60,153 nt of DNA from Microcoleus sp. Aus8_D1 (GCF_036702645.1 NZ_JAUBUO010000016.1:92186-152338); one strand, 5' to 3'. Positions 1,581-47,607 are shown, numbered from the stretch's first letter. Notes: a model not told the origin generated them from the sequence alone. Numbers and translations are program-made.

Positions 1581-2327
1581 AGTTAAAAAATCCTAGTTTT
1601 AATTCTTTAGTTTCAATTCCTTCTAGGAATTTACGCCTTTTTGTTTTGAAGGAAGTGTGTTGAAGGAAGTGATGGCCTACCTCTAGTAGAGATGCACAGC
1701 GGATGAAAACCTATATTTTTTACACCCTTACCGTCCCGCTTCCGTCATTTGACCAAATTATCTGCTTCTTGTCAAGCGCTAGCAACTTCTCACCAATATT
1801 TTTAAGTTGGCGATCGCCCTCTATAGAACAACCTGACCCCAAAAATCGATACCGTGCCACGTACAAGCGTCGTGAGCCGCCCAAAATTTGAGATCCGAGT
1901 TCCTGCTCCCAAATTCACGGAGCTGCAAGAAGTAAATCTCAAATCGTTCTCCTCTAGCGTGACTCTCCTCTAGCGCTCGCTAAACGTCTCGCCGAACGTC
2001 TCACGCCGAAGTCTCAAATCTCAAATCGAAAAATGGAAAAATGGAAAATCGACTGACTGGGCTGGGGGTGGAGGACGGATGCTGGCGATCGGGAATATTC
2101 CCTACCGTTCAACAGCTTTTTGTACAGTAACAGAGAGAAAAGTTTTTTCCTGGGAGGGCGTCTTGGAGCAACAGGGGATAATCAAGATAGCATAAATACA
2201 ATGGCTATGTCAACCCATAGCCGAGAAAAAATTAAATTGTATCTAAGTCTCTAAATGACTATAAATGACTGTAGATTGAATGAAGTTTTATAATACAACA
2301 AAAGTCAATCTTTTGCCGATAGGTTTT

Positions 2328-4142
2328 ATGACAAACGTTCCTGTATCTCGCATTCGTAATTTTTCGATTATTGCTCACATCGACCACGGAAAATCCACTT
2401 TGGCCGATCGCCTGTTGCAGGCGACTGGAACTGTGCAAGCACGGGAGATGAAGGAGCAGTTTTTAGACAATATGGATATCGAACGCGAACGTGGCATTAC
2501 GATCAAGCTGCAAGCGGCTCGGATGAATTACACTGCCAAGGACGGTCAGGAGTACGTGCTGAACCTGATCGACACTCCCGGACACGTTGACTTCTCCTAC
2601 GAGGTTTCGCGATCGCTCGCTGCTTGCGAAGGGGCGCTGCTGGTGGTAGACGCATCTCAAGGCGTGGAAGCACAAACCTTGGCAAATGTCTACCTTGCCT
2701 TGGGAAACAATTTGGAAATTATTCCGGTTCTAAATAAAATTGACCTACCGGGAGCGGAACCGGAACGGGTAAAAGGGGAAATTGAAGAAATTATCGGTCT
2801 GGACTGTAGCGGGGCGATTGAGGCTTCGGCTAAGGAAGGAATTGGTATTGATGAGATTTTGGAGGCGATCGTCGAATTGGTGCCGCCGCCGCAGGATACT
2901 GTTGACAAACCGCTGCGGGCGCTAATTTTTGACAGTTATTACGATGCTTATCGCGGGGTAATTGTGTATTTCCGGGTGATGGACGGAAGTGTTAAAAAGG
3001 GCGATCGGGTGTTGTTGATGGTTTCGGGGAAGGAATATGTCATTGATGAATTGGGCATCCTGTCACCGACACAAGTACAAGTAGATGAATTGCACGCGGG
3101 GGAAGTTGGTTATCTAGGCGCGGCAATTAAGGCGGTAGCTGATGCTCGCGTCGGGGATACGATTACTTTGGTCAAAAAGCCTGCACCAGAGCCTTGGCCT
3201 GGTTATACGGAGGCTAAGCCGATGGTTTTTTGTGGCTTATTCCCGATCGATGCCGACCAATTTCCCGACTTGCGGGAAGCTTTGGAAAAACTGGAACTCA
3301 ACGATGCGGCGCTTTCCTACGAACCGGAAACTTCTAGCGCGATGGGATTTGGTTTCCGCTGCGGTTTCTTGGGTTTGCTGCACATGGAAATTGTGCAGGA
3401 AAGACTGGAAAGAGAATACAATTTGGATTTGATTGTTACGGCTCCTTCTGTGGTTTATCAAGTCACAACAATCAAGGGAGAAGTGTTAACAATTGACAAT
3501 CCGAGCCACTTGCCAGATCCTCAGTATCGGGAGAAGATTGAGGAACCTTACGTGCGGGTAGAAATGCTGTCGCCGGAAACTTATGTGGGCGCGCTGATGG
3601 AGTTATCTCAAAGTCGGCGGGGCATTTTTATGGATATGAAGTATCTGAGTCAGGGGCGGACTACCTTGGTTTACGAGTTACCTTTGGCGGAGGTGGTGAC
3701 GGACTTTTTCGATCAGATGAAATCGCGATCGCGCGGTTATGCGAGTATGGAGTATCACATCATCGGTTATCGCGAAAATCCGTTGGTGAAATTGGACATT
3801 TTAATTAATGGCGATCCGGTTGATGCTTTGGCGATGATCGTGCACCGGGATAAGGCTTACAATGTGGGGCGCGGCTTGACGGAGAAACTGAAGGAGTTGA
3901 TTCCCCGCCACCAGTTTAAGGTGCCGATTCAAGCGACTATTGGCGCTAAGGTGATTGCTTCGGAACATATTCCGGCTTTGCGGAAAGATGTGTTGGCGAA
4001 GTGTTACGGCGGCGATATTTCGCGGAAGAAGAAGTTGCTACAAAAGCAGGCGAAGGGTAAGAAGCGGATGAAGTCTGTTGGTACTGTGGATGTGCCGCAG
4101 GAGGCTTTTATGGCTGTGCTGAAGCTCGATCGCGATTCGTAA
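2328..4142 (+). CDS. lepA: Elongation factor 4 (LepA), translational GTPase
   Basis: [31 protein letters not shown]1 motif, [13 protein letters not shown], and the LepA-specific C-terminal domain. Start moved from the ORF-track 2280 to Met17, the canonical LepA N-terminus. Confidence 0.95.
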
Positions 4143-4212
4143 TTTGTGTGTTGGGGCGATCGCACTTTTTACCGAAGGGCGATCGCACTTTCAGCTAATA
4201 AATGATTGCAGA

Positions 4213-4515
4213 TTACTCATCATCATCCTCATCATCCGGGCCAAATAAGTCGCTAGCCTTACTACCCAAAAGTCCAAAAATCGCACCCACGCCCATATTC
4301 CAAGTCGTATTGCAACTCTCAAAAATCCGAACTTGTTGGGGAGATAGACTATCCTTAGTACCAAGCGATACACACACGCCTCCAGAAAGTAAGGTAAAAC
4401 AAATCACGCTGAAGAAGACTTGCTGGAAAACTGGGGGAATTTGAGGAGGAGTATTTTTAGGACTCATTTGAGTAGATTTGGGTTTAGCGGGTGTGATATT
4501 AGATTTAGTTTTCAC
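4213..4515 (-). CDS. Hypothetical small protein with one predicted TM helix and an acidic C-terminal tail (DDEDDDE)
   Basis: 100-aa ORF with hydrophobic stretch VFFSVICFTLLSGGVCVSLG. No recognisable family; could be spurious. Confidence 0.25.
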   Translation of the reverse strand: MKTKSNITPAKPKSTQMSPKNTPPQIPPVFQQVFFSVICFTLLSGGVCVSLGTKDSLSPQQVRIFESCNTTWNMGVGAIFGLLGSKASDLFGPDDEDDDE

Positions 4516-4672
4516 CGTGGCTACCTTTGATTGAATATGTTTTAATCTTAAAGACTCAAAGCTGGAAAGTCAGCCTGTGTATAGGTTTCAGTTACTATGA
4601 GTTTGGTATGCGTTTGGGATGTGTTTGGTTGGCGATGCTCGCTATAATACTTAAAAGGTTTGTAATTTGGCT

Positions 4673-5728
4673 ATGGCGTCGCTCAAAGCATCCGAGGCAG
4701 GAATCGAAAAAATAAATATACGTTTTACAGACAAAGGCTGGAGTCGCCAAGACTTAGCCGATCGAGTTGTAATAGGGGAGGGCAAAAAGTCCAAGGAAGG
4801 GATTGATATTCAAGTTATTCATAAGTTTTTTACCCAGAAGAGTGTCAGCAGCCAGTATTTTGTGGGAATTTGCAAGGCTTTAGAGTTGGATTGGCAGGAA
4901 ATTCGAGAACCCAATGGAACGCCACCGCCCCCAATACTACCAAATCACAATCCCATCCCAGAAATAGAACAGCCAAATATCAAATACGATAATCCCTTTC
5001 GTCCGACAAGTGGCAAAATAGACGATCGCCGCTTTTTCTTTGGCAGACAGCGGGAAATTCGGCGGGTATTCGAGACTCTGAATAGTGGCAGTAGTGTAGC
5101 AATTGTTGGCGAAAGAGCGATCGGCAAAAGTTCTCTGCTACAAGCCATTTACCAACAAGCACCAAATCAACTCCGTCCTCCGCGCCAACCCATTTACCTC
5201 AACTTGCAAGATGTTTATGATGAAGATGATTTTTACTGTGCTTTGTGCAGCGAAGTCAATATAGATATAGCGAAGGGATATTTACTAAAACGGGCTTTAG
5301 AATCGCACCGACTGCTGTTGCTTTTAGATGAAGTTGAGAAAATGAACTGGAATGGATTTACTAACCAAATACGCGGTCAATTGCGGGGTTTAGCGGAGGG
5401 AACAAACGCACCTTTGCGTCTAGTTGTCGCCGCCTGCACCTCTCTCGATACGCTGTTTCCTGACAGTCAAGACCAAAATATGACATCTCCTTTCAAAGGA
5501 ATTTGCATTGAGGAAACTCTGAAGCGATGGGATGATGAAATCAGTCGCAAATTTATTGCAAGCCGCCTCCAGGCTGATTGGTTAACACCTGTTGCCCAAC
5601 CCGTGAGTTTTACAGAGGATGAAATTGCGAGTTTAATTGCTGAAAGTGGTGGCTATCCTCAGAAATTGATGCAGTTGTGCTATCAAACTTACGATCGCTA
5701 TCTTTGCGATCGATCCAATATTTTGTAG
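4673..5728 (+). CDS. XRE-type HTH domain fused to a minimal AAA-like/STAND-type P-loop NTPase
   Basis: N-terminus KGWSRQDLADRVV is a typical HTH_XRE helix, followed by a Pro-rich linker. FFGRQREIRRVFETL then Walker A GERAIGKSSLL and Walker B LLLLDEVEK. First in-frame ATG is at 4673 (the ORF track starts at TTG 4667). TATAAT at 4643-4648. Confidence 0.7.
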   Translation: MASLKASEAGIEKINIRFTDKGWSRQDLADRVVIGEGKKSKEGIDIQVIHKFFTQKSVSSQYFVGICKALELDWQEIREPNGTPPPPILPNHNPIPEIEQPNIKYDNPFRPTSGKIDDRRFFFGRQREIRRVFETLNSGSSVAIVGERAIGKSSLLQAIYQQAPNQLRPPRQPIYLNLQDVYDEDDFYCALCSEVNIDIAKGYLLKRALESHRLLLLLDEVEKMNWNGFTNQIRGQLRGLAEGTNAPLRLVVAACTSLDTLFPDSQDQNMTSPFKGICIEETLKRWDDEISRKFIASRLQADWLTPVAQPVSFTEDEIASLIAESGGYPQKLMQLCYQTYDRYLCDRSNIL

Positions 5729-6125
5729 GGGCAGGTTCACCAACAATAATTGTCGCCAACCAACAATTCTGATAAACCTGCCCCCACCCAACGACAAATC
5801 CCAATCTACCAATAACCAAATATCCAGTAGGGGCAGGTTCACCAACAATAATTGCCACCAACCAACAAATCTGATAAACCTGCCCCCACCCAACGATAAA
5901 TCCCAATCTACCAATAACCAAATATCCAGTAGGGGCAGGTTCGCCAACAATAATTGCCACCAACCGACAATTATCATAAACCTGCCCCCACCCAACGACA
6001 AATCCCAATCTACCAATAACCAAATATCCAGTAGGGGCAGGTTCGCCAACAATAATTGCCATTAACCAACAAATCTCATAAACCTGCCCTCACTCACCCA
6101 ACGACAAATCCCTATCTACCTTCTT
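5726..6125. repeat. Tandem array of four ~102-bp direct repeats. Each unit carries a 10-bp-stem hairpin, GGGGCAGGTT-(N38)-AACCTGCCCC
   Basis: Units start at 5726, 5828, 5930 and 6032 with a few substitutions. Lies in the intergenic region between the two NTPase genes. Open frames on the minus strand (5610..6062, 5633..6052) are repeat artefacts. Confidence 0.9.
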
Positions 6126-6162
6126 TTCAAACACTGAACGGTATTCGAGCATAATACATAGG

Positions 6163-6226
6163 CCGGGGCGGGTTTTTGAAATTGTCGATTTTTGGCAATG
6201 ATTGTTGGTGAACCCGCCCCTACGGA
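6163..6226. repeat. Inverted, diverged copy of the 102-bp unit hairpin, GGGGCGGGTT...AACCCGCCCC
   Basis: Reverse complement taggggcgggttcaccaacaatcattg matches the unit start taggggcaggttcaccaacaataattg. Confidence 0.7.
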
Positions 6227-6328
6227 AATAACGCTCGATCGACCTGAAATAATCAGTTACAAAATCAGTTGCCGAACTTCCTTCTGCTATATAACCAATC
6301 CTAAATTTTATTTATCTCCACCTATTTT

Positions 6329-8992
6329 ATGAATCAAAACCATCACCCCGTTCCTCGATTAGATTTAGCTCCCAAACTGAAGCGTCCTCTTTCTTTGTCG
6401 AATCCTTTAGATTACCTGCGATTGTTATATTGGGTGTTTTTCTTTCCTCAAGCTGTGCGGTGGTATGAGTTTATTTTTGGGGGTGAATCTAATTTAAAAG
6501 ATGCCAAAACGTGGCGAGAAAGGTGGGATTGGTTGCGTCAAAATCCAGTCCAGCGTCAGTTAATTTTGCAAGCTTTGATATTAATACTTGCTATCACTCT
6601 AGGTTTTAATATATTTTTTTTAGGCCTCAGTATTCCTATTAATTGGTGGGTTGTAGTGTTAGGCGTAGGGTTCCCTGTTGCCTATGGCGTGGGGTTGGCC
6701 GTGGAGTTCGGCGTAGCATCCGGTGTGGCATTCGGCATGGCGTTCGGCATGGTTTTGGGCATGACCTACGGCGCGGCCTCCGGCATAGCGTCCAGCGTGG
6801 CGTCCGGCCTGGGGTTAGGCCTGGCATTAGGTATTAGCTTGGGCGTGAGGTCAGGTGTGGGAGTGGGCGTGGCGTCTGCTGTAGGGATGGGTGCGGGGTT
6901 GGGTGTGGGTTTGGGCGTATTGTCCGGTGTGGGTTCCGGCGTGAGGTTTGGCGTGGCGTTGGGCTTGGGGTTAGGATTGGCGTCAGTCGTGGCGATCGCA
7001 CGTCCTGAAAATTGGCTGTTCGCTTTACCGTCTATCCTACTCCAGCGCCAACAGCAAAATAGACAATTTCCTCACATTACCCCGCTTCCCCTTCCTTACC
7101 TGTCTGCTCAAATAGCTAATTGGCTGAGGCGGGATTGGGAAACAGGATTGCACAACATTGACGAACTACTAAAATTTACTCTTCAGTTTATCCCGGTTAT
7201 TAAAGCTGTAAATTGCGTACTAGCAGAGACACCAAAAGACCAAATCATCTATCGCCTCGCTCAATTATCAGAAAATCCTTATGATTGGAATTTAGTGCGT
7301 TTTGCCTCAGCTTCTCTTAGTCAAAAAATGAAGTTAGAAGCAGTGGCAGGTTTTTTCAGCTTCATACCTTGGAAACAACAAATTCAAGCTCGTTTTCAAA
7401 CAGAAATTCGTTTAAATACTCCTGCCCGTGCCTCTGCCGCTGGTTTCTGGTATCTCCACGAACAGGAACCAGACAAAGCTACAGCAGCTTTTGCTGTAGT
7501 CCGAGATTTGCTTTATGGAGAGGAGATGTTTGCCTTAGCGCAAATTCTCACAAGTTGTCACCAAACAGCAGAACTAGCCGAGATTGCCGCCTTGAAACTG
7601 CCACCTTCCCCAAATCCACCTCTGCTTCGCGGGACTACTTGGGAAGCAATTGCCTCTCTGCGTCGGGTAATAGTCGATGTTCAACTTATCCAGAATAGTG
7701 TATCTCTTTTTGCCCGTTCTCTTGCCAGCAACCGAGCATTAGGTCAGCTTAAAACTATCTTAAATCAAGCTGGAGTTATACCTATATCTGAACGAAATTT
7801 AATTGTCAAAATAGTCAAAAAATGGTTAGAGATATTACTGCAATTCACAGTTGAAATAGGAGATATTTCAATTACTCAACCTGTCAGCAACCCCTATACC
7901 ATAGGCGATCCAGTCCAAGGCAATCAGTTTGTCGGCCGCGAAGACATCATCAGAGAGCTAGAGGAGTTGTGGGTACAGGGCGATCGCCTGCAATCTGTTG
8001 CTCTCTACGGTCATCGGCGGATGGGGAAAACTTCAATTTTGTTGAATGCTAGCAACTGCCTCGGAGCAAAGGTACAGGTAGCCTATGTCAATGTGTCGCT
8101 GGTGGCAGATTGTTCTCAGGGAGTCGGCGAATTGCTCATATTCGTTACCGATGCCATTGCCAAAACAGTCAAAATTGCACCTCCGGGCGATCGCGATTTA
8201 CTCGATTTGCCCTATATCACTTTTCGACGCTATATCGAACAAGTCATCGGAAATATAGAAGGCGGATTGATCGTTGCTTTAGACGAGTTTGAAAAAATCG
8301 AAGAATTGATCGACGCTGGGAAAATCGATCGCGATTTTATCGGTTTCTTGCGCGGCATGGTGCAAATGAGTTCTAAAATAGCCTTTGCGTTTGCCGGATT
8401 GCACACCTTAGACGAAATGACCGAGGATTATTTCAATCCTTTTTTTGCTAGCATTATCCCCATCCGAGTCGGTTTCCTGAGTTTGGGTGCAACTCGCCAA
8501 GTTTTAGCCAATCCCGATGATGATTTCCTCCTCGACTACAAACCGGAAGCACTCGATCGCATTTACGAACTAACAGGCGGCCAACCCTATCTCACGCAAT
8601 TAATCGGATTTCTATTAGTCCGCCACTACAACGACCAAGTATTTGAAATGGGACACCCCCGCGATCCAATGTTTAGCATAGAAGATGTGGAAACAGTCAT
8701 CAATGACCCGGATTTTTTCAGCAGAGGTCGCTACTATTTTACAGGAATTTGGGGTCAAGCAATGGAAGGTGCACCGGGACAACAGCAGATTTTAAGAGCA
8801 CTAGCACCTCACTTAGACGGAATGAATTTCGACAGGCTGAGTGCAGAAATAGGGATGGATAGAAAAAGTTTAGAGGAAGCATTAAAAACCCTGGAACGTC
8901 ACGATGTGGTTCAACAAAGTGATGGTTGCTACTGTATTAGTGTGGAACTATTTCGCCGTTGGGTTCAGATGTCATTGGGAGGGAACGGGTAA
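6329..8992 (+). CDS. Large membrane-anchored AAA-like/STAND-type NTPase. N-terminus has Gly/Ala/Val-rich small-residue TM helices; the C-terminal half carries an ORC/Cdc6-like P-loop ATPase
   Basis: Residues ~75-230 are hydrophobic GxxxG-rich repeats (GVGFPVAYGVGLAVEFGVASGVAFGMAFGMVLG...). Later come FVGREDIIRELEELW, Walker A GHRRMGKTSILLN and Walker B LIVALDEFEKI, typical of the cyanobacterial AAA-like domain family. Confidence 0.75.
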   Translation: MNQNHHPVPRLDLAPKLKRPLSLSNPLDYLRLLYWVFFFPQAVRWYEFIFGGESNLKDAKTWRERWDWLRQNPVQRQLILQALILILAITLGFNIFFLGLSIPINWWVVVLGVGFPVAYGVGLAVEFGVASGVAFGMAFGMVLGMTYGAASGIASSVASGLGLGLALGISLGVRSGVGVGVASAVGMGAGLGVGLGVLSGVGSGVRFGVALGLGLGLASVVAIARPENWLFALPSILLQRQQQNRQFPHITPLPLPYLSAQIANWLRRDWETGLHNIDELLKFTLQFIPVIKAVNCVLAETPKDQIIYRLAQLSENPYDWNLVRFASASLSQKMKLEAVAGFFSFIPWKQQIQARFQTEIRLNTPARASAAGFWYLHEQEPDKATAAFAVVRDLLYGEEMFALAQILTSCHQTAELAEIAALKLPPSPNPPLLRGTTWEAIASLRRVIVDVQLIQNSVSLFARSLASNRALGQLKTILNQAGVIPISERNLIVKIVKKWLEILLQFTVEIGDISITQPVSNPYTIGDPVQGNQFVGREDIIRELEELWVQGDRLQSVALYGHRRMGKTSILLNASNCLGAKVQVAYVNVSLVADCSQGVGELLIFVTDAIAKTVKIAPPGDRDLLDLPYITFRRYIEQVIGNIEGGLIVALDEFEKIEELIDAGKIDRDFIGFLRGMVQMSSKIAFAFAGLHTLDEMTEDYFNPFFASIIPIRVGFLSLGATRQVLANPDDDFLLDYKPEALDRIYELTGGQPYLTQLIGFLLVRHYNDQVFEMGHPRDPMFSIEDVETVINDPDFFSRGRYYFTGIWGQAMEGAPGQQQILRALAPHLDGMNFDRLSAEIGMDRKSLEEALKTLERHDVVQQSDGCYCISVELFRRWVQMSLGGNG

Positions 8993-9013
8993 ATAGTTAT
9001 GTTGGAAGCATCT

Positions 9014-9250
9014 CAAGCTCTGTAGGGTGTGGATCCATTGACAATTCTCAAGAAAAAAGCGACCATCTAATAGCGACGCACCTCTTTTTTTCAAGCTCTG
9101 TAGGGTGTGGATCCATTGACAATTCTCAAGAAAAAAGCGACCATCTAATAGCGACGCACCTCTTTTTTTCAAGCTCTGTAGGGTGTGGATCCATTGACAA
9201 TTCTCAAGAAAAAAGCGACCATCTAATAGCGACGCACCTGTTCTTTTCAA
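9014..9250. repeat. Tandem array of three 78-bp direct repeats, each ending in a T-run
   Basis: caagctctgtagggtgtggatccattgacaattctcaagaaaaaagcgaccatctaatagcgacgcacctcttttttt occurs at 9014, 9092 and 9170. ORFs 8959..9300 and 8972..9274 are artefacts of this array. Confidence 0.9.
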
Positions 9251-9382
9251 GAATCCAGGACACAAACCCAACATTTTTGTGGTATCAAGCTTTTTTATAA
9301 ACCGATTGGTAGGGTGAAGCGACTAAAGTCTGGAAGTGCGATCGCACTTCCACAGTGCTAATACCATTTCCGCCCCTTCCCT

Positions 9383-9706
9383 TCAAATCCCTTCTTCCTC
9401 TTCACCGCTAGACTCGCCTGAAAAAAGTAATTCTATATCCCGATAACCGCTGACTATTCTCACAATTTCAATATTTCCACTGACAGCTCGATAAAAAATC
9501 AAGTAATCTTCTACTAAAAAACTCCGCAAACCCAGCTCCAATTCATCCCGACTTCTCCCTATACTTGGAAAATCAACCAATAACTTGCACTGCTGCTTAA
9601 TCGCTTCCTTGAGTCTTTTCGCAGAATCCGGGTTAAACTGAGCAATATAGCGGACAATCTCTTTCAATTCACGCTTCGCTGAAGGTGCTAAAATATACCG
9701 AGTCAT
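9383..9706 (-). CDS. parE: Type II toxin, ParE/RelE family
   Basis: MTRYILAPSAKRELKEIVRYIAQFNPDSAKRL...YLIFYRAVSGNIEIVRIVSGYRD matches the ParE toxin fold pattern. Overlaps the upstream antitoxin gene by 1 nt. Confidence 0.8.
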   Translation of the reverse strand: MTRYILAPSAKRELKEIVRYIAQFNPDSAKRLKEAIKQQCKLLVDFPSIGRSRDELELGLRSFLVEDYLIFYRAVSGNIEIVRIVSGYRDIELLFSGESSGEEEEGI

Positions 9707-10014
9707 TACTTGACCTCCTCAGCTTGCTGCATTTGCGCCTCTATCCGACAAATATCTTCCTCGATTTCATCAAATACCTCTTCGCCATCAATCCCTTCAC
9801 CGCGATCTAATTCTTCTATCCCTACTCGAATTTTTTCCTTCAAGTCAGCAAGACGCTTCTCCTTAATGCGATCGCGCTCCCACAACAACCGCAAAGCTTC
9901 CCCCACCATCTCACTCGCTGAGGAATATTTACCTTTTTTTACCTGTTCTTGGATTAACCGTTCGAGTTCTGAAGTCAAAGATATATTCATCACAATTTGC
10001 TCCGCTATCGACAT
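9706..10014 (-). CDS. parD: Type II antitoxin, ParD family
   Basis: NISLTSELERLIQEQVKKGKYSSASEMVGEALRLLWERD is the ParD antitoxin signature. Start could instead be Met9 at 9990. Confidence 0.75.
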   Translation of the reverse strand: MSIAEQIVMNISLTSELERLIQEQVKKGKYSSASEMVGEALRLLWERDRIKEKRLADLKEKIRVGIEELDRGEGIDGEEVFDEIEEDICRIEAQMQQAEEVK

Positions 10015-10326: not shown

Positions 10327-10524
10327 CTATTCCACCAAATCTTCGATCGAGAATTTCAGTAAATCACACAGCGCCTTCATCTGTACGGGGTAAAGCTTGG
10401 GTACGTGTCTGTCAGTCTCCCAGTTGATCACCGTCGATTGCACAACATGGCACGCCTTTGCCACTTGTATCCGAGTTAAACGGAGACTTTCACGTCGTTT
10501 TCTTAGCTTTTGTCCCAGCGTCAT
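10327..10524 (-). CDS. XRE-family HTH transcriptional regulator, 65 aa
   Basis: LGQKLRKRRESLRLTRIQVAKACHVVQSTVINWETDRHVP is a classic HTH_XRE. A divergent promoter region with three operator-like palindromes lies immediately upstream. Confidence 0.7.
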   Translation of the reverse strand: MTLGQKLRKRRESLRLTRIQVAKACHVVQSTVINWETDRHVPKLYPVQMKALCDLLKFSIEDLVE

Positions 10525-14047: not shown

Positions 14048-16855
14048 ATGAACCGGATAATCAGAAAAATCAGCCAAGGTTTGCTGAGATTGAGGAACCG
14101 TCATTTTTTGTTGATTGACACGATTTGTTTGGCGATCGCCCCCGTATTGGCGCTAGCTATTCGTTTAGATGATTCTTTTACTCTTGCACCCTACTTGTAC
14201 GGGCTAGCGGTAGCTACGGTATTGTTCGTTGCAGTAAAGCTAACTGTATTTTATAGCTTCGGGTTCTACAGGCGTTACTGGCGGTATGCCGGTATTGACG
14301 AATTGGCACAAATAGCGGTGCTGATCGGTGTGGCTTTAGCCTTAGAAACTATACTGTTCCAAGGGCTGGCTCACCTGAGTATTTTTGGGGTCAACAAACT
14401 GCCGCGATCGCTGCCACTGCTCGATGCGATGCTGAGCTTTTTGTTTATTGGCGGCATTCGTTTCAGCATTCCCGCGATCGAAAGGTTGAGCCAAAGACGC
14501 CGGAAATTTCAGCGGTGCGATCGCTTGCTGATAGTCGGTGCAGGGAGTGCAGGCATTTCTTTGATGCAGAAAATGCAGCGGAGTTCCCAGCTAGGACTTT
14601 ACCCCGCAGCTTTCATTGACGACGACCCGAAAAAGCTCAACTTGCGGATTCGCGGAGTAAGTGTAGTAGGCGATCGCCATCAAATTCCCCAAATAGTTAG
14701 GTCGTTAAATATCTCTAAAGTTATCATTGCCATACCCACAGCCCCGGGAAGAGAAATTAGAGAAATCGTAGAAATTTGTCAGTCAATTGGAGTGCCAACC
14801 AGTACACTGCCCGGTATCAATGAAATCATCAACTGCCGCGTCAGCTTGGGCAGCGTCAGGGAAGTACAAATTGAGGACTTGCTCCGTCGCGAATCCATCC
14901 AAACTGATGTCGAGAAAGTTTCCGAATTTATCATAGGCAAAAAAGTTCTAATTACCGGAGCTGGTGGCTCGATCGGCAGCGAACTTTGCCGACAAGTTTT
15001 AAAATCAGAACCTGCGGAAATGATCCTTGTAGGACACGGAGAAAACTCTGTATTCAACATTCAACAAGAACTAAACCGGGTGATTTCCCAACTCCAAAAA
15101 GCAGGCGAACTCAAAATACATATCCCTCAATTAACAACATTCATAGCCGATATTCGCTTTGTCGATCGCTTAGAGTACGTGTTTGACAAAGTTAGACCAG
15201 ATATTGTGTTTCACGCGGCGGCTCACAAACACGTACCCATGATGGAATTAAACCCGCCTGAAGCCATTACTAATAATGTGCGGGGAACAAAAAACCTGTT
15301 GGATATGGCATTGAAGTACGATGTCGAACATTTTGTGATGATTTCGACTGACAAGGCCGTGAATCCAACTAACATTATGGGCGCCAGCAAAAGAGTTGCA
15401 GAAATGCTGGTGCTGCAAGCTGCAAAAAAAAGCGGGAAACCCTTTGTAGTTGTACGTTTTGGCAATGTTCTCGGCAGTCGCGGCAGCGTCGTCCCCACCT
15501 TCAAACGGCAAATTGCTGAAGGCGGCCCGATCACCATTACCCATCCAGATATCAGCCGGTATTTCATGACAATTCCCGAAGCAGTGCAACTGCTGTTGCA
15601 GGCGGCAGTGCTCGGTGACGGGGGTCAAGTATTCATGCTCGACATGGGGCAGCCAGTCAGAATTGTTGACTTGGCAAAAGATTTAATTCGCCTTTCGGGA
15701 TATGAGTTGGGCAAAGACATTGATATTGTCTTCACGGGGCTGCGGCCTGGAGAAAAATTGTTTGAAGAACTGTTTATTCCCGGGGAAACCTACGACAAAA
15801 CTGAACATGAAAAAATTCTGATTCTCGGCAATGCCAGCCGCATTGTCCGAGAAAATATTGAGCAGGACATAGAAGCCCTTTGTCAAGCAGCTCATCGAAA
15901 TGATGCCAATTTAATTGTGTTTTTGCTAGAGCAGTTAGTGCCTGAATACATACCGGGATATTCAACTGTTAATTTGCACGCCAATATAGCCCAAGAAAAA
16001 ACGGATATCGCAGAAAATTCTCCGCAGGTTCAGACAAATTCCAACAGTGTTGTATCTGTTGACGTAGAGAATGATTTGAGGCAAGCTCTTAAACTTCAGG
16101 AGTTTCGCCTTTACTATCAACCGATAGTATGCCTGGAAACTCATAAGATTACAGGTTTTGAGGGGCTGCTGCGCTGGCAGCACCCGACTCGTGGATTTCT
16201 TGTCCCAGACGAGTTTATTCCAGCGGCAGAAGCCACGGGGTTGATTGTGCCTATTGGCGAGTGGGTGTTGCGTCAAGCTTGCAGCCAGTTGCGAATTTGG
16301 CAACAGCGATTTGATATTGACGATCCCTTAACAGTCAGCGTGAATCTGACTAGCAAACAGTTTTTCCAACCTGATTTAAGCGAGGTACTCTACCAAATTC
16401 TAACGGAAACTAAGCTTGATGCTTCTAGTTTAAAGATAGAGATTCCGGAGCAAGTTGCGATCGACAATTCTGAGCTAGCTACCGCTGTGTTTGTTAAACT
16501 CAAAGCTTTAGGGGTGCAATTGCAAATCGATCACTGCGGTTTGAGCGATCGATCTTTAACTCGCCTCCACCGCTTGATACGCATGAAGTATGGGAAGTTC
16601 GACAGTTTGAAGCTAGATTGTTCTGTGGTCAGCGGGCTGGAGGGTAATGACGCTAACTTAGAAACTCTCCAAAAAATTATTGCGATCGCGCAGGAGCTAG
16701 ATATGGGTATGATTGCAACTGGGGTGGAAACCTGCGAGCAAATAGCTCAGCTCAAAGCGCTGAAATGCGTCTACGGCCAGGGATACTTTTTCTCGAAGCC
16801 CGTGGAAGGCTCTAAGATAGAGACATTGATTGGCACTATGACTGCTCATAGTTAA
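14048..16855 (+). CDS. Fusion of a membrane-bound UDP-sugar 4,6-dehydratase (WbpM/CapD/PglF Polysacc_synt_2) with a C-terminal degenerate EAL (c-di-GMP phosphodiesterase-like) domain
   Basis: Four N-terminal TM helices and Rossmann LITGAGGSIGSEL. The EAL domain begins ~16090 (QEFRLYYQPIVCL...FEGLLRWQHP). The DDFGTGYSS motif is replaced by DHCGLSDRS and EAL by EGL. Confidence 0.85.
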   Translation: MNRIIRKISQGLLRLRNRHFLLIDTICLAIAPVLALAIRLDDSFTLAPYLYGLAVATVLFVAVKLTVFYSFGFYRRYWRYAGIDELAQIAVLIGVALALETILFQGLAHLSIFGVNKLPRSLPLLDAMLSFLFIGGIRFSIPAIERLSQRRRKFQRCDRLLIVGAGSAGISLMQKMQRSSQLGLYPAAFIDDDPKKLNLRIRGVSVVGDRHQIPQIVRSLNISKVIIAIPTAPGREIREIVEICQSIGVPTSTLPGINEIINCRVSLGSVREVQIEDLLRRESIQTDVEKVSEFIIGKKVLITGAGGSIGSELCRQVLKSEPAEMILVGHGENSVFNIQQELNRVISQLQKAGELKIHIPQLTTFIADIRFVDRLEYVFDKVRPDIVFHAAAHKHVPMMELNPPEAITNNVRGTKNLLDMALKYDVEHFVMISTDKAVNPTNIMGASKRVAEMLVLQAAKKSGKPFVVVRFGNVLGSRGSVVPTFKRQIAEGGPITITHPDISRYFMTIPEAVQLLLQAAVLGDGGQVFMLDMGQPVRIVDLAKDLIRLSGYELGKDIDIVFTGLRPGEKLFEELFIPGETYDKTEHEKILILGNASRIVRENIEQDIEALCQAAHRNDANLIVFLLEQLVPEYIPGYSTVNLHANIAQEKTDIAENSPQVQTNSNSVVSVDVENDLRQALKLQEFRLYYQPIVCLETHKITGFEGLLRWQHPTRGFLVPDEFIPAAEATGLIVPIGEWVLRQACSQLRIWQQRFDIDDPLTVSVNLTSKQFFQPDLSEVLYQILTETKLDASSLKIEIPEQVAIDNSELATAVFVKLKALGVQLQIDHCGLSDRSLTRLHRLIRMKYGKFDSLKLDCSVVSGLEGNDANLETLQKIIAIAQELDMGMIATGVETCEQIAQLKALKCVYGQGYFFSKPVEGSKIETLIGTMTAHS

Positions 16856-38412: not shown

Positions 38413-39039
38413 TTGCTCATCCTCCTTTGCTAAAAATATTTCTGGTAACTGATGCAGTATTTTAGCACGCATTTTTATTTGATAACAATAGTCCGGACAG
38501 TTTGCGATCGCCAACGGTAGAATGAGGGTTTCAGTTTCATCAGAATCAGAAATATTAACGGTAGAATGCGGGTTTTAGCGGCTAATCTCAAAACAGTCCG
38601 GAGTATTGATTTGATAAGTGCCCGCCAAGTTACACCATTCTATTGTATATTGAGAAATTTTGAGATTTTTATCACTTCTAGCTAAGGACTTGACGGGAGC
38701 ATCTAATACCATGCGTGAAAAAATGTTGCAACAATAAAATTTTGGGGTTTGTTTCGTTCACCTAATGTGTAAGGTGCGGAGCTATTAGATTTTCACTCTT
38801 TTTTAGAGATTGTCGATGGCTCCACACCCTACATATACTGTTGCATTAATGCATGAAAATTGGTATAACTTGAGACTTGAGGATAGGGTTATACCAATTT
38901 AGATTTGAGATTAAAGAATGGATATTAAAGAATTGAATAATGGGGAATCACTTACTGCATAAGGGTTCGGAGCAGGAGCCTACAGTTGCATTATTTTTGG
39001 GGAAACTGGTATTAGATGCGATCGCCCGTCATGTTCTCA

Positions 39040-43423: not shown

Positions 43424-43745
43424 AGGGTGTGTCGCCTGCGAAGAATCCCTAACTAAATATCGAAAATCTCAAAGCTCCGCACCTGTCAACTCGCCCGATC
43501 GCCAATAAAGTCGATCGCCTACAATCAAGTATTCGGGTGTGTCGCCACAAAAAATCCTTAGCCAAACATGAAAAATCTCAAAGCGACGCACCTGTGAACT
43601 CGCCCGATCGCCAATAAAGTCGATCGCCTACAATCAAGTATTCGGGTGTGTCGCCACAGAAAATCCTTAGCCAAACATCGAAAATCTCAAAGCGACGCAC
43701 CTGTCAACTCGCCCGATCGCCACTAAAGTCGATCGCCTACAATCA
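43424..43745. repeat. Tandem array of ~3 copies of a 109-bp unit immediately upstream of the NACHT gene
   Basis: acctgt(c/g)aactcgcccgatcgccaataaagtcgatcgcctacaatcaag... recurs at 43481, 43590 and 43699. ORF 43320..43508 and the 43648 start extension are repeat artefacts. Confidence 0.85.
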
Positions 43746-43785
43746 AACTAACCCGCTTCGAGCAGCGCATCAGGAGAACCGTCAA

Positions 43786-46700
43786 ATGTCAGATCCGATT
43801 ACCTTGGGCTTGCTTTTCACAGTCGCTTGGCAAGGCATACTAGGAACTCAAGTTAATGATGCAGCAAAACATCTCTGTTTGACAGGCATTAAAAAGATAT
43901 CGCGAAACGGTAAAATTGTCAATCACGATTTAGAAAAAGCGCTGAAAACATCTTTCCTGAAAGCTCAGCAGCAAATCGCCTCAGAATGCAAGCAGGAAAT
44001 CGATCCGAAAAATAGCGCTAACCGAGAGAGTTTTAGCTATTCGCTGCAAGACAGGCGGCGCGATTTTGATTGGTTGAAACGAAAGCTCGAAAAGCTCAAA
44101 TTAGATTTAGAACAGGTTAATAAAGAAACAGTCCCGTCTGGGATTCCGATTGAGGGTTTAGATGAGATAGAATTGCTGCTGACTGCCACAGATGAGTTAA
44201 AGCAGAATCGGGTAGCAGCAGTTGAGCAAAAATTGCTGGAAGTTGCCCTCGAAAATTGCGATGTCGCACATTACAAAACGAAGTTAGAGCAAGAGTTGTT
44301 TGCCTTGGTGGCTGCATACTTTGCTCAAGAAATCAAGGAAAATGAAAAGGTTTTTCAGATATTCACCGGGCAAACTTTGACGCGAATTGATACCACAACC
44401 CAAGAGATGTATGCTTGGCTTGAGGAGATTGTGCAAAAGAGCCGCATTGTTTACCAACCGATTGACTGGCGGGCTATTTGTCAGCAGATTTTAGACGAGA
44501 AAGAACAGCAGCGGCTCAGTAGCAATCAGCTAACTTTTGGCGATCGTCAAATTGATGATGTTTATGTGCCGCTGGGATTGGTTGAACGGCACAAAGTGAC
44601 TCAGCGCCGGGAGGATTTGGCGGCGGAGGAAGGTTCGGATTTGTACCGGGAAAAAGAAGTAACTCAAACCTTTGAAAATAAGGAGTTTCTGGAGCAAGTT
44701 TTGCGGGGAGGAAGTAGCCCGAAGAGCAATGGGAAGCGGTTAGCAATTATTGGGGAACCGGGGGCGGGGAAAACTACGCTGTTGCGGCAGATTGCTAATT
44801 GGGTGGCGGAGGAAATTTCCGAGGCGATTGTTATTTGGGTTGCTTTGGCGGATTTGCAGGGGAAAGATTTAGAATCGTATTTATTTGATACTTGGTTGCT
44901 GGCGGCAATTAAGAGGGTTGGGAAAGCTGAGGCGACGGCGGATATTAAAGATGATTTTTTAGCACAGTTTAATGCTGAGCGGGTTTGGTTGGTGTTGGAT
45001 GGCGCGGATGAGATGGCTGCGGGTGATGGGAATCCTTTGGCGGAAATTCAGCGACAAGTTAGAACGGGCGGCTGTGTTCAAAGGGCGCGGATTGTGCTAA
45101 GTTGTCGGCAGAATGTTTGGGATGCGATCGGCTCTGCCTTGGATACTTTTGATACTTATCGTACTCTGGAGTTTTCCTATCCCGAACAGGTGGAAATGTT
45201 TATCGATAAGTGGTTTGGAACCCCCCCTAACCCCCCCTTGCTAAGGGGGGGGACAAGAGAAGAAGGGGATACTTTTGCTCGTGGTTTATCAACGCAGGCG
45301 ACAGGAGAAGGGAACACTCTTACTCCCCCCTTAGCAAGGGGGGCTGGGGGGGTTCTTCCTCCCTCCATCCCAACCCAAAATACAGAAGAAACTCTTACTC
45401 CCCCCTTAGCAAGGGGGGCTGGGGGGGTGCTTTCCCAACAGCTACGGGAAGCATTAGCAGCATCGGGGAAAGAGCGAATTCAAGACTTAGTAAAAAATCC
45501 GCTGAGATGTTCGCTGCTGTGCGGTACTTGGCAGTCGTTGGATGGGGATTTGCCGGATACTAAGGCTAAGCTTTATCGGCGGTTTGTGACTGCTTTGTAT
45601 CAGTGGAAGGAACCGCGCCTGAATTGGAGTCAGCAGCAGGATTTGAATGCGGCTTTGGGGAAATTGGCTCTGGCTGGGATGTTAAATGAAACGGATCGGT
45701 TTCAGTTACGAGAAAGTGTGGGATATCGGGTGATGGGTGCATCGCAGTTTGAGATAGCTTGCCGCTTGGGTTGGCTGAATTTGGTGGCGAGGGATGCGGA
45801 GACGGCGGAAGGGATTTATGCTTTTTATCATCCGACTTTTCAGGAATATTTTGCGGCGTTGGCGGCTGAGGATTGGCATTTTTTCTTGAATCATTTTCCT
45901 GGGAATCCGCAGCATCCTGATGCTCGATATCGGATTTTTGAGAAGCAGTGGAAGGAGGTTATTTTGCTGTGGTTGGGCCGTGAGGAGGTTGGGAAGGAGG
46001 AGAAGGAAGCGTTTATTAAGGCGTTGGTTGAGTTTGAGGATGGGTGTGGTAAATTTTATGGAGATCGGGCATATTTTCTCGCGGCTGCGGGGATTGCTGA
46101 GTTTAAGGATTGCAGTTTTGCTGATGAGATTGTGTCGCAGGTTATTAAGTGGGGGTTTGGTTATTTTGATGAGGAAAAGCAGGAGTGGCAAACATTTATC
46201 GCTCCACTGGCAGAGAGTTCATGGGATATACTGAAGGAGACGGATCGGAAAAGGGCGATCGTAGCTTTAGTTGAGTCAATCCGCAATTCAGGTAATGAAA
46301 AAACCCGGTGGATAGCGGCAAATATATTAGGGGAAATAAGCAAAGATAATCCAGTTGCGATCGAAGCTTTCGTCGAGTTAATCCGTAATTCTCAGGATGA
46401 AAATACCCGGAGGGAGGCGGCAGCTAGCTTAGGAACAATAGGCAAATCTAACCCTGTTGCGATCGAAGCTTTAGTCGAGTTAATCCGTAGTTCTCAGGAT
46501 GAAGATACTTGGAAGCAAGCGGCAAAAAGCTTAGGAGAAATAGGTGAAGATAACCCAGTTGCAATCTCCGGGTTAGTCAAGTTAATTCGCAATTCAGGCG
46601 AACAAAATACCCGGATGACAGCGGCAAATAGCTTAGGAAAAATTGACATAAATAACTTAGTTATACTTGTAAATTTTGATGAACTGAGTGCTACTTCTGA

Positions 46701-47607
46701 AGATGACAATACGATGATTAAATTGGCATATAGCTTGTCAAAATCAGTAACAAACAACTCTCTGATACTCGCAAATTTAGATAATTGCGACGAGCTTATT
46801 GGTACTTCTGAGGATGACAATACCTGGAGAAATGCCCTAAATATCTTAGGAAAAATCGAAAAAGATAACTCAGTTGCGCTCTCAGCTTTAGTCGAGTTAA
46901 TCGGTACTTTTCAGGATAAAAATACCCGGAGGAGAGCGACTGTAAGCCTAGGGCAAATATGCAAAAACAACCCGGATGCGATCGCCGCTTTAGTCGAGTT
47001 AATCAGCAATTCAGGTGATAGACATATCCGTAGTATAGCGGCAGATAGCTTAGGTGAAATCATGAAAGATAAACACTTCGCGATCGCAGTCTCTGGTTTG
47101 AAAGATTGCCTAACTTCCGAAATCTACAAAAACGACTTTACTCTTTATCACAAGTGCTGCCTCGTCATCTCTGACTGTGCCCAAAGCAAGACTTACCCAG
47201 AATTTTATCAAGCATGGCACACTCAACCCACCAATTCCCCAATACCGGACAACCACCCACAAAATCCAGATATCCCCACACTCCTAAAACAACTCAAACC
47301 CACAGATAAAACCTTCCCCGTACCCCTCAACATTCGCGCGTTAGAAGGCGAAACCGATATAAGCCCGATCGCCCAAGAACTCTGTACCCAACTATATCAA
47401 ACAATCTTCCCCGCAGATACAGACATCCCCGCCATCCGCAACGCCCCGGAATTCAAGCGATTAATCCCCCAACTCAAACACCGGCTGCAAAAACCGCACA
47501 TCGCCTTAATCTTGCACTCGTGCCCGTGCGAAAATGCGCTTTCGTCTTTCACCCGCAAACTCGCCGACTCTCACATGGGTATTCATATCGCCTGGATTAG
47601 CGATTAA
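43786..47607 (+). CDS. STAND NTPase: unknown N-terminal domain + NACHT + C-terminal HEAT (PBS-lyase-type) repeats
   Basis: Walker A GEPGAGKTTLLRQIANW and Walker B VWLVLDGADEM. At least 8 HEAT-like repeats (AIEALVELIRSSQDEDTWKQAAKSLGEIG...). Start at Met47 of the track ORF, after the CAGGAGAA RBS. Confidence 0.85.
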   Translation: MSDPITLGLLFTVAWQGILGTQVNDAAKHLCLTGIKKISRNGKIVNHDLEKALKTSFLKAQQQIASECKQEIDPKNSANRESFSYSLQDRRRDFDWLKRKLEKLKLDLEQVNKETVPSGIPIEGLDEIELLLTATDELKQNRVAAVEQKLLEVALENCDVAHYKTKLEQELFALVAAYFAQEIKENEKVFQIFTGQTLTRIDTTTQEMYAWLEEIVQKSRIVYQPIDWRAICQQILDEKEQQRLSSNQLTFGDRQIDDVYVPLGLVERHKVTQRREDLAAEEGSDLYREKEVTQTFENKEFLEQVLRGGSSPKSNGKRLAIIGEPGAGKTTLLRQIANWVAEEISEAIVIWVALADLQGKDLESYLFDTWLLAAIKRVGKAEATADIKDDFLAQFNAERVWLVLDGADEMAAGDGNPLAEIQRQVRTGGCVQRARIVLSCRQNVWDAIGSALDTFDTYRTLEFSYPEQVEMFIDKWFGTPPNPPLLRGGTREEGDTFARGLSTQATGEGNTLTPPLARGAGGVLPPSIPTQNTEETLTPPLARGAGGVLSQQLREALAASGKERIQDLVKNPLRCSLLCGTWQSLDGDLPDTKAKLYRRFVTALYQWKEPRLNWSQQQDLNAALGKLALAGMLNETDRFQLRESVGYRVMGASQFEIACRLGWLNLVARDAETAEGIYAFYHPTFQEYFAALAAEDWHFFLNHFPGNPQHPDARYRIFEKQWKEVILLWLGREEVGKEEKEAFIKALVEFEDGCGKFYGDRAYFLAAAGIAEFKDCSFADEIVSQVIKWGFGYFDEEKQEWQTFIAPLAESSWDILKETDRKRAIVALVESIRNSGNEKTRWIAANILGEISKDNPVAIEAFVELIRNSQDENTRREAAASLGTIGKSNPVAIEALVELIRSSQDEDTWKQAAKSLGEIGEDNPVAISGLVKLIRNSGEQNTRMTAANSLGKIDINNLVILVNFDELSATSEDDNTMIKLAYSLSKSVTNNSLILANLDNCDELIGTSEDDNTWRNALNILGKIEKDNSVALSALVELIGTFQDKNTRRRATVSLGQICKNNPDAIAALVELISNSGDRHIRSIAADSLGEIMKDKHFAIAVSGLKDCLTSEIYKNDFTLYHKCCLVISDCAQSKTYPEFYQAWHTQPTNSPIPDNHPQNPDIPTLLKQLKPTDKTFPVPLNIRALEGETDISPIAQELCTQLYQTIFPADTDIPAIRNAPEFKRLIPQLKHRLQKPHIALILHSCPCENALSSFTRKLADSHMGIHIAWISD
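45232..45425. repeat. Three copies of a near-palindromic mini-element CCCCCCTT(A/G)GC(A/T)AAGGGGGG embedded in frame in the NACHT gene
   Basis: 45232-45252 in one orientation; 45315-45352 and 45388-45425 as a 38-bp direct repeat in the other. They encode PPLLRGG / PPLARGAGG. Confidence 0.75.

Follow-up and report, generated by a model that had tools for sequence, protein, structure and literature searches.

We investigated a stretch of DNA from Microcoleus sp. Aus8_D1 (GCF_036702645.1, NZ_JAUBUO010000016.1:92186-152338; 60,153 nt, one strand, 5' to 3'), which as a whole is called the window here and whose positions are counted from its first letter. Two neighbouring open reading frames (ORFs) on its plus strand, P1 upstream and P2 downstream, each encode a P-loop nucleoside triphosphatase (NTPase). 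We propose, with a probability of roughly 0.5, that P1 and P2 form an operon encoding a membrane-to-cytoplasm switch dependent on nucleoside triphosphate (NTP), in which P2 would be the sensor or scaffold and P1 the output. The pair looks like a conserved signalling switch rather than a mobile phage-defence cassette. The two genes had been singled out by a model from the DNA alone (hereafter, the sequence-only reading), and they appear in the ORF list as follows.

4673-5728, plus strand: P1 gene, encoding a helix-turn-helix (HTH)-NTPase protein of 351 aa from the ATG at 4673 (the NCBI start) or 353 aa from the in-frame TTG at 4667.
6329-8992, plus strand: P2 gene, encoding an AAA+ ATPase of 887 aa, predicted to be membrane-anchored.

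Residues of P1 are numbered from the TTG at 4667. In NCBI, P2 has a 100% match in MEG4320550.1, recorded as 'MULTISPECIES: ATP-binding protein [unclassified Microcoleus]', and P1 is entered in its 351-aa form as MEG4320551.1, which carries the UniRef name 'nSTAND1 domain-containing NTPase'. The possibility that P1 is a pseudogene or an unusual allele, raised by a best protein-database match of 80%, was rejected; the low match stems from indexing, as the 351-aa form sits in a 90% cluster that is represented by an 81-aa fragment.

The evidence for a module begins with gene order. We scanned GTDB with one genome per species, examined the best 80 P2 loci and clustered the flanks over 81 loci; the adjacency count was limited to the 76 GTDB loci with upstream DNA. 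A P1 homologue lay directly upstream of P2, on the same strand, in 74 of these 76 loci. The arrangement was also present in Nostoc ATCC 53789, and in Pseudanabaena cinerea a divergent P2 is preceded, at a distance of 5 nt, by a P1-type NTPase that shares 51% identity with that of the window. The gap between the two genes had a median of 129 nt, and the longest-ORF calls overlapped in 21 of 75 loci. Clustering of flanking ORFs returned P1 and P2 as the sole recurrent genes, with no third conserved gene; the next commonest neighbours were oligopeptide ABC transporter genes (25-27 Nostocales-type loci) and lepA (Microcoleus). Flanks were syntenic within orders or lineages and different between orders. 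Because adjacency is kept to this extent, the view in the sequence-only reading that the pair is a genuine module stands, and the objection that the two never co-occur elsewhere fails.

The two NTPases are also related to each other. Aligned with hhalign, the profiles of the P1 and P2 NTPase families matched over 224 columns (probability 95%, E 3.4e-8), and the alignment took in NP[FY]...F[FV]GRE before Walker A as well as the GG(H/Y/Q)P motif of the lid. The closest solved relatives of both were 2qen/2fna and Orc1/Cdc6, with 2qen at the top for the P1 profile. Judged by these profiles, the P1 and P2 NTPase modules are homologous beyond the P-loop. That the two neighbours are both P-loop NTPases akin to Orc/Cdc6 or ATPase_2 was thus borne out by Pfam, Foldseek, hhalign and the P1 profile search. 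No P1-P2 fusion protein was present among 148 P2-family representatives.

Relatives of P2 were found in at least 530 species-level genomes of GTDB. The best 80 loci were all cyanobacterial and came from Microcoleus, Tychonema, Kamptonema, Oscillatoria, Coleofasciculus, Symploca, Okeania and many Nostocales, in addition to one Leptolyngbyaceae and one Xenococcaceae metagenome-assembled genome. Named matches were all filamentous or pleurocapsalean cyanobacteria, including deep-branching Pseudanabaena, within a survey that covered unicellular clades non-exhaustively. P2 was mostly single-copy; Oscillatoria sp. PCC 10802 (locus L063) has two P2 paralogues at 1839-4535 and 7001-9463, 51% and 56% identical to the window P2 and 2.5 kb apart, with one P1 between them. 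No P2 relative was found on viral contigs or on 72,556 plasmids, and the neighbour-joining tree of P2 grouped broadly by taxon. To judge from this distribution, the pair is inherited vertically on the chromosome across filamentous cyanobacteria and is not mobile, unlike a typical defence cassette. A literature search on the pair and its family, including Npun_R2479 and genes for cyanobacterial multicellularity, returned no description. SepT (All2460), a membrane protein of multicellular cyanobacteria encoded near P-loop genes, was considered and set aside as coiled-coil/SMC-like and unrelated.

P2 is the constant member of the pair. Its structure was taken from an AlphaFold2 (AF2) model compared by Foldseek, families were scanned with Pfam, NCBIfam and PADLOC-DB v2, and conservation was assessed over 60 P2 orthologues. 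Its parts are listed from the N-terminus.

6347-6478, plus strand: near-invariant N-terminal motif from ortholog alignments, residues 7-50, PVPRLDLAPKLKRPLSLxNPLDYLRLLYWVFFFPQAxRWY (PVPRLDLAPKLKRPLSLWNPLDYLRLLYWVFFFPQALRWY).
6560-6628, plus strand: conserved hydrophobic helix, residues 78-100, predicted first membrane span (hydropathy peak 2.52; AF2 helix 73-99).
6641-7003, plus strand: Gly/Val/Ala hydrophobic repeat of period 4, residues 105-225 (121 aa), ending at a conserved RPENW junction; delimited by composition, spacing and DNA repeats.
7004-7864, plus strand: all-helical, family-specific middle domain, residues 226-512.
7919-8773, plus strand: AAA+ core and lid, residues 531-815, with Walker A GHRRMGKTS (561-569) and Walker B ALDEFE (650-655); by Foldseek.
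8774-8989, plus strand: C-terminal winged HTH, residues 816-887 (HTH_IclR E 5e-4 at 820-864; GntR E 0.058; AF2 helices followed by a beta hairpin at 861-870).

The ATPase motifs quoted for P2 (FVGREDII...GHRRMGKTSILLN...LIVALDEFEKI) were verified in the sequence. The AF2 model, with a predicted local distance difference test (pLDDT) score of 80-90 in the ATPase part, matched 2v1u, 2qby, 2fna and 2qen in Foldseek (E 1e-6 to 2e-6, probability 1.0), and the order of AAA+ core, lid and C-terminal winged helix is that of the ATPase_2/Orc-Cdc6 fold. The Pfam searches suggested earlier gave a mixed outcome: P1 scored above the cut-off for nSTAND1, whereas P2 stayed below it for ATPase_2 (PF01637; 20.7 against 33.2 bits), AAA_35 (20.5 against 27) and AAA_16 (21.4 against 32.6), and the glycine-zipper models returned nothing for P2 at E<=1. 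Precomputed PF01637 matches were present in most P2 orthologues; against the Orc1/Cdc6 model TIGR02928, P2 scored 15.4 bits (cut-off 181.3). Walker A and DEF were invariant in 60 of 60 orthologues (G561, K567, D652 and E653), and the second E of DEFE was kept in 59 of 60; we propose that the ATPase is catalytically competent. Mean pairwise column identity across orders was 0.72 in the ATPase, 0.74 in the lid and 0.77 in the N-terminal motif, a pattern that points to P2 as a constant, slowly evolving partner under strong purifying selection.

The N-terminal 530 residues of P2 were covered by no Pfam, NCBIfam or PADLOC model and matched no solved fold. The N-terminal motif, which likewise had no Pfam or NCBIfam match, was discernible even in the most divergent members, and residues 1-55 had a mean column identity of 0.77. 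Behind it, the 19-residue hydropathy exceeded 1.6 over residues 73-226, and the 127 residues from 100 to 226 comprised 32 Gly, 23 Val, 17 Ala and only 4 charged residues, so that the small-residue hydrophobic region described before the present analysis was confirmed by hydropathy and composition. Gly-Gly pairs were most frequent at spacings of 4, 8 and 12 residues (counts of 20, 23 and 20) and never occurred at an odd spacing, a (G/A/S)xxxG pattern recurred within the segment, and the repeat was coded by 12- and 24-nt DNA tandem repeats (6707-6975). Across the 60 orthologues its length ranged from 33 to 188 aa, often in 4-residue steps, and its column identity was 0.34. In Kamptonema and the most divergent P2s, ordinary multi-helix hydrophobic sequence takes the place of the glycine repeat. 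Because some orthologues have such ordinary helices, the glycine pattern does not appear essential, and the comparison argues for a membrane domain of which the glycine repeat is one low-complexity version, not an indispensable trait. The shortest repeat (33 aa) fits one further span, so both ends of P2 would be cytoplasmic. We infer membrane insertion and topology from these properties.

The helical middle domain appears to be particular to this family. Its profile matched only 362 clusters among 1.84 billion representative proteins, and it stood at a near-constant position in every full-length match listed (proteins of 816-1035 aa). The layout was common to all six P2 N-termini that were inspected. 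Poorly conserved, low-confidence loops at residues 331-358 and 511-527 separate the domains.

P1 is the variable member. Its ortholog set comprised 68 proteins, including 16 from Microcoleus with an XRE head, and two modules were distinguished.

4688-4906, plus strand: putative XRE (Cro/C1)-type HTH head, residues 8-80; Pfam matches in orthologues, not in the window copy.
4991-5725, plus strand: NTPase module and helical lid, residues 109-353, with NPF...FFGRE, Walker A GERAIGKSS (148-156), Walker B LLLLDE (D221) and GGYP in the lid.

The quoted motifs (FFGRQREI...GERAIGKSSLL...LLLLDEVEK) were verified, and a Pro-rich linker joins the head to the NTPase module. P1 scored 32.6 bits against Pfam nSTAND1 (PF20703; cut-off 27.1), in an alignment that covered only residues 119-160 (42 residues; profile positions 11-52 of 379), and it also matched AAA_22 and AAA_14; nSTAND1 and AAA_22 were matched by 68 of 68 orthologues. 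Walker A (GxxxxGKSS) and the Walker B aspartate were invariant in all 68, and the residue after that aspartate was E in 31 and N in 33, an alternation that fits a nucleotide-binding switch and not a motor. The protein ends at residue 353, straight after the NTPase-lid, with no C-terminal sensor or repeat, and no extra domain was present in the 68 orthologues.

In the window copy, the N-terminus of P1 matched no HTH model of Pfam at E<=1, and a profile of the head gave nothing significant against solved structures. By homology, the window head is probably of XRE type, because 12 of the 16 Microcoleus orthologues (55-77% identical) matched HTH_26 (Cro/C1; best E 2.8e-5) and 7 matched HTH_3; the idea that one of the NTPases is HTH-fused is therefore supported by orthologues and not by the window copy itself. 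Over the whole set, the NTPase was always retained behind N-terminal heads of eight unrelated classes: 16 XRE, 12 CHAT (caspase-like protease), 3 GerE, 1 Trypsin_2, 26 and 8 in two HTH-like classes assigned only by our own reading of the sequence, and 2 singletons. Heads that are HTH or HTH-like numbered 54 of 68, of which 16 XRE and 3 GerE were confirmed by Pfam and 35 are HTH-like by reading only. The commonest head (26 loci) resembles a sigma-r4/LuxR HTH, also by reading only. HTH_VMAP-M9 was considered for it after a 'weak' precomputed match in the Nostoc ATCC 53789 orthologue, and was not adopted, since a scan of seven such heads gave no match at E<=0.1. Atypical heads occur at loci L055 (1059-2375) and L056 (877-2355): one is a Trypsin_2 peptidase (E 8.9e-17), and the other is a 254-aa N-terminus with only a faint bDLD3 match (E 0.069).

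Upstream of P1, two elements were found.

4596-4628, plus strand: three 11-nt direct repeats, candidate operator, TATGAGTTTGG, TATGCGTTTGG and GATGTGTTTGG (unit TATGNGTTTGG; Tandem Repeats Finder period 11, 3.1 copies), just upstream of the -10-like box.
4643-4648, plus strand: TATAAT, resembling a -10 box and read directly, 25 nt ahead of the P1 ATG (4673).

The 260 nt upstream of P1 were 79% conserved in 14 Microcoleus loci, with TAYAAT in all 14 and the 11-nt repeat region nearly invariant (a fourth unit occurs in locus L006). A degenerate HIP1 site lies between the repeats and TATAAT. A promoter and terminator scan of the DNA gave nothing above shuffled expectation; TATAAT went uncalled by the simple promoter scan because it has no -35 match. 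Positions 4596-4648 are a candidate operator and promoter of the operon, and the 11-nt spacing hints at binding by a protein of the response-regulator or HTH type.

A 102-nt tandem repeat (5725-6120; 3.8 copies, 93% matches) and an inverted partial copy of it (6165-6223) fill the spacer between P1 and P2. Its unit was found again between P1 and P2 in locus L017 and elsewhere in locus L007. By its repeat content, the 600-nt gap is a lineage-specific insertion of this repeat, compared with a usual gap of about 129 nt. Directly after the P2 stop lies a 78-nt tandem repeat (three copies, 98% matches, 9013-9251), of which a diverged copy stands 30 kb off on the opposite strand (38772-38833). The repeat arrays were rejected as part of the module, being dispersed Microcoleus intergenic repeats; minus-strand ORFs of 150 and 139 aa at 5610-6062 and ORFs at 8959-9300 were dismissed as repeat translations, not genes.

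Further from the pair, lepA lies upstream; downstream come a ParDE pair and a small XRE gene, followed by an island of about 25 kb for polysaccharide biosynthesis.

9383-10014, minus strand: ParE toxin (E 1.7e-21) and ParD antitoxin (E 8.7e-7).
10327-10524, minus strand: 65-aa XRE gene (HTH_31).

A minus-strand ORF of 100 aa (4213-4515), divergent from P1, encodes one hydrophobic helix and an acidic tail and has no Pfam match; it is kept beside P1 in about 10 Microcoleus loci only, one being a 98-aa gene in M. vaginatus HSN003 (locus L002, 6358-6654). ParDE and the 65-aa XRE gene are absent from this position in HSN003. The polysaccharide island (11284-36000; low GC content, 0.34-0.41 in parts) encodes a Wzc-like GNVR/ParA tyrosine-kinase-type protein, a MurJ-like flippase, GT4 glycosyltransferases and asparagine synthase. 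One of its products (14048-16855, plus strand, 935 aa) combines CoA_binding_3 and Polysacc_synt_2 (a CapD-like dehydratase) with a C-terminal EAL domain, joining a sugar-nucleotide enzyme to a domain of the cyclic di-GMP phosphodiesterase type. The island appears to be inserted relative to HSN003, from which it is absent and where P2 is closely followed by epimerase, UDP-glucose dehydrogenase and polyphosphate kinase genes; their window equivalents are found at 39.8-54.5 kb. A classical STAND protein 35 kb away, unrelated to the pair, is a NACHT NTPase of 1319 aa (43648-47607, plus strand) with HEAT repeats and the NACHT C-terminal domains NCC-H and NCAB1. Thus, the ParDE pair, the small XRE gene and the repeat arrays are confirmed, but the 'defence island' that the sequence-only reading saw there is not supported: the flanks are lepA, ParDE and the polysaccharide island, those of other lineages hold ABC transporter genes, and no defence neighbour recurs among the 81 loci.

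The switch that we favour would work as follows. As sensor or scaffold, P2 would sit in the cytoplasmic membrane through its N-terminal motif, conserved helix and variable small-residue region, with the middle domain, AAA+ ATPase and winged helix facing the cytoplasm. The output subunit would be P1, a soluble NTPase of small size that belongs to the ATPase_2/Orc-Cdc6-like lineage and has a lineage-specific head; it would dock on the P2 ATPase or co-oligomerise with it through the homologous NTPase-lid modules. A membrane or envelope cue may then alter the nucleotide or oligomeric state of P2, by which P1 would be released or activated. In this Microcoleus genome, the XRE HTH would bind DNA and give a transcriptional response, possibly with autoregulation at the three upstream 11-nt repeats; in other lineages, the switch would drive a CHAT or trypsin protease. 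The P1-P2 contact, the way the signal runs, the kind of cue and the DNA targets are our inference.

Several points weigh against this switch. An intact P1 is missing beside P2 in two genomes: Symploca SIO2C1 lacks any P1 within 7 kb, and Oscillatoria princeps retains only a 34-residue remnant. P2 may thus function by itself. It also has a winged helix of its own and could itself be the DNA-binding output. The proposed interaction is drawn from adjacency and a common fold, and in the window the two genes are separated by the 600-nt repeat-filled spacer, where co-transcription is putative. Changes of the P2 repeat in 4-residue steps between 33 and 188 aa are hard to square with a fixed number of spans, and the pLDDT of the AF2 model is below 50 over this repeat, so that the proposed topology is tentative. 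The literature searched contained no published experiments or papers on any family member.

Among the alternatives, a possible but clearly less favoured one is a housekeeping or developmental role in filamentous cyanobacteria, in which a tethered Orc/Cdc6-like ATPase and its partner organise DNA, the envelope or division. The restriction of named matches to filamentous and pleurocapsalean cyanobacteria, in a survey with non-exhaustive coverage of unicellular ones, agrees with such a role. Vertical inheritance, a mostly single-copy P2 under strong purifying selection, and DNA-binding-type folds in both proteins (the P2 winged helix and the P1 HTH), together with the Orc1/Cdc6-like fold, are likewise what it would predict. 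However, exchange of the P1 head for CHAT or trypsin is unexpected of a structural or DNA-organising partner, P2 is found without P1 in two genomes and in two copies in Oscillatoria PCC 10802, and P2 resembles Orc/Cdc6 in fold alone, at 11-18% sequence identity. On a similarly tentative footing, the pair may be an ancient, vertically inherited surveillance hub of multicellular cyanobacteria, with a membrane AAA+ sensor of envelope breach, incoming DNA or damage, and with heads that reprogramme transcription (HTH) or trigger a proteolytic cell fate such as programmed cell death (CHAT or trypsin).

Somewhat less probable is an anti-phage or abortive-infection system, in which the NTPases would sense infection, a glycine zipper of P2 would perforate the membrane and P1 would be the DNA-binding partner. 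Repeated GxxxG-type small-residue helices occur in pore-forming peptides, and a pattern of this type is present in P2; yet it is replaced in some orthologues and matches no glycine-zipper model of Pfam. The sequence-only reading had cast this segment as a pore-forming effector, a part that P2, the constant partner, fits poorly, since effector-like variation lies in the P1 head. CHAT and trypsin heads, typical conflict effectors, occur in 13 of 68 P1 orthologues, and because of them a conflict role is retained as a rival; on the other side, the 54 HTH or HTH-like heads (35 by reading only) are not toxic enzymes. ParDE adjoins P2, but no defence gene recurs in the flanks. Weak PADLOC matches were obtained (PDC-S01, mad8 and PDC-S27), of which the best, PDC-S01, reached 23.7 bits and PDC-S27 18.6 bits, both in the P-loop region only; the PADLOC and NCBIfam antiphage matches together stayed at P-loop level with at most 24 bits, and the cut-offs of the NCBIfam models are 370-790 (DS8_antiphage, 14.7 against 790). 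P1 exceeds the cut-off for nSTAND1, a clade defined in predicted counter-invader systems (PMC8195603), but conservation of P2 in so many species, syntenic within orders and off plasmids and viral contigs, is unlike the patchy occurrence of mobile defence genes.

An improbable reading is that P2 is a membrane-tethered regulator and its own output: P1 or another protease would cut the interdomain loops and free the ATPase-winged-helix part for DNA, with the P1 HTH as an accessory. The IclR/GntR-like winged helix at the end of P2, the position of the two loops of low conservation and confidence between domains, and the protease heads of P1 (13 of 68) are compatible with it. Against this, most P1 heads are not proteases, a winged helix is standard in ATPase_2/Orc-type modules and need not bind DNA, and no evidence of cleavage was found. 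That P1 and P2 are unrelated neighbours with a coincidental P-loop likeness, for which the 600-nt separation in the window might speak, is refuted by adjacency held across orders with different flanks and by NTPase homology beyond the P-loop, the gap itself being a repeat insertion.

The switch, then, remains our preferred account, and it concerns an operon found in at least 530 species-level genomes of filamentous and pleurocapsalean cyanobacteria yet annotated only as 'ATP-binding protein'. The pair unites core-gene conservation and synteny with the swapping of effector heads seen in conflict systems, features that are usually separate. If a membrane-to-transcription or membrane-to-protease switch is correct, it would offer a tractable entry to the sensing of envelope damage or infection in filamentous cyanobacteria, and would put to the test the idea that multicellularity in bacteria arose together with NTP-dependent conflict modules. 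Were the surveillance hub correct instead, the filamentous habit would come with an immune or cell-fate module of its own, core and non-mobile, and the expandable glycine repeat would be a new kind of sensor element. How a segment that changes length in 4-residue steps sits in the membrane is a structural question of its own.

Compared with known systems, the P1-P2 pair follows a logic parallel to that of systems predicted by Kaur, Burroughs, Iyer and Aravind in multicellular bacteria but differs from all of these in domain content, and it seems previously undescribed in the literature searched; the statement in the sequence-only reading that no characterised system has this architecture agrees with the lack of a match in Pfam, NCBIfam, PADLOC and that literature. 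Among the closest relatives by fold are the archaeal ATPase_2 (PF01637) proteins SSO1545 (2fna) and PAB2304 (2qen), which have in common with P2 the FxGRE-Walker A-Walker B (hhhhDE) core, the GGxP lid and the C-terminal winged helix. These are soluble proteins of about 350 aa with no N-terminal module, whereas P2 adds 530 residues (motif, membrane region and helical domain). Orc1/Cdc6 (2v1u and 2qby) gives the best Foldseek matches and shares with P2 the succession of AAA+ core, lid and winged helix, but the identity is 11-12%, P2 is predicted to be membrane-anchored and is paired with a second NTPase, and no evidence links P2 to origin binding.

Other likenesses concern organisation. In the nSTAND1 counter-invader NTPases (Kaur et al. 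2021; PMC8195603), caspase-like (CHAT), trypsin or HTH modules take the place of the N-terminal head, as they do in P1; P1 differs from that clade in having no C-terminal FGS/lectin, TPR or WD40 sensor, and its partner is another ATPase, predicted to be membrane-bound, and not an EAD-coupled effector. The two-gene nSTAND2 system (Kaur et al. 2021, Fig. 6C; PMC8195603) is, like P1-P2, an operon of two related STAND-like NTPases predicted to act together, but it is linked to GT4 effectors, no membrane anchor is mentioned in the passages of that paper found by term search, and P1 and P2 match no nSTAND2 model. Avs and bacterial NLR-like STAND proteins (PMC13581612) place an N-terminal effector before a P-loop NTPase, as P1 does, and are activated by oligomerisation. 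They are single large proteins with C-terminal sensor repeats and are found in defence islands, whereas here the sensor-like part would lie on a separate membrane protein in a non-defence context. The two-gene EACC1 'System 4' (Kaur et al. 2020; PMC7159879) couples a constant membrane protein with a transmembrane glycine patch, a proposed membrane sensor, to a partner with a widely variable effector. The EACC1 domain and its caspase are absent from the Pfam matches of the window P1 and P2, and the domains of the two systems differ (EACC1 and caspase there, two ATPase_2-like NTPases here). That system is mainly actinobacterial, whereas P1-P2 is cyanobacterial, chromosomal, syntenic and near-universal within its clade, but the logic of the two runs in parallel.

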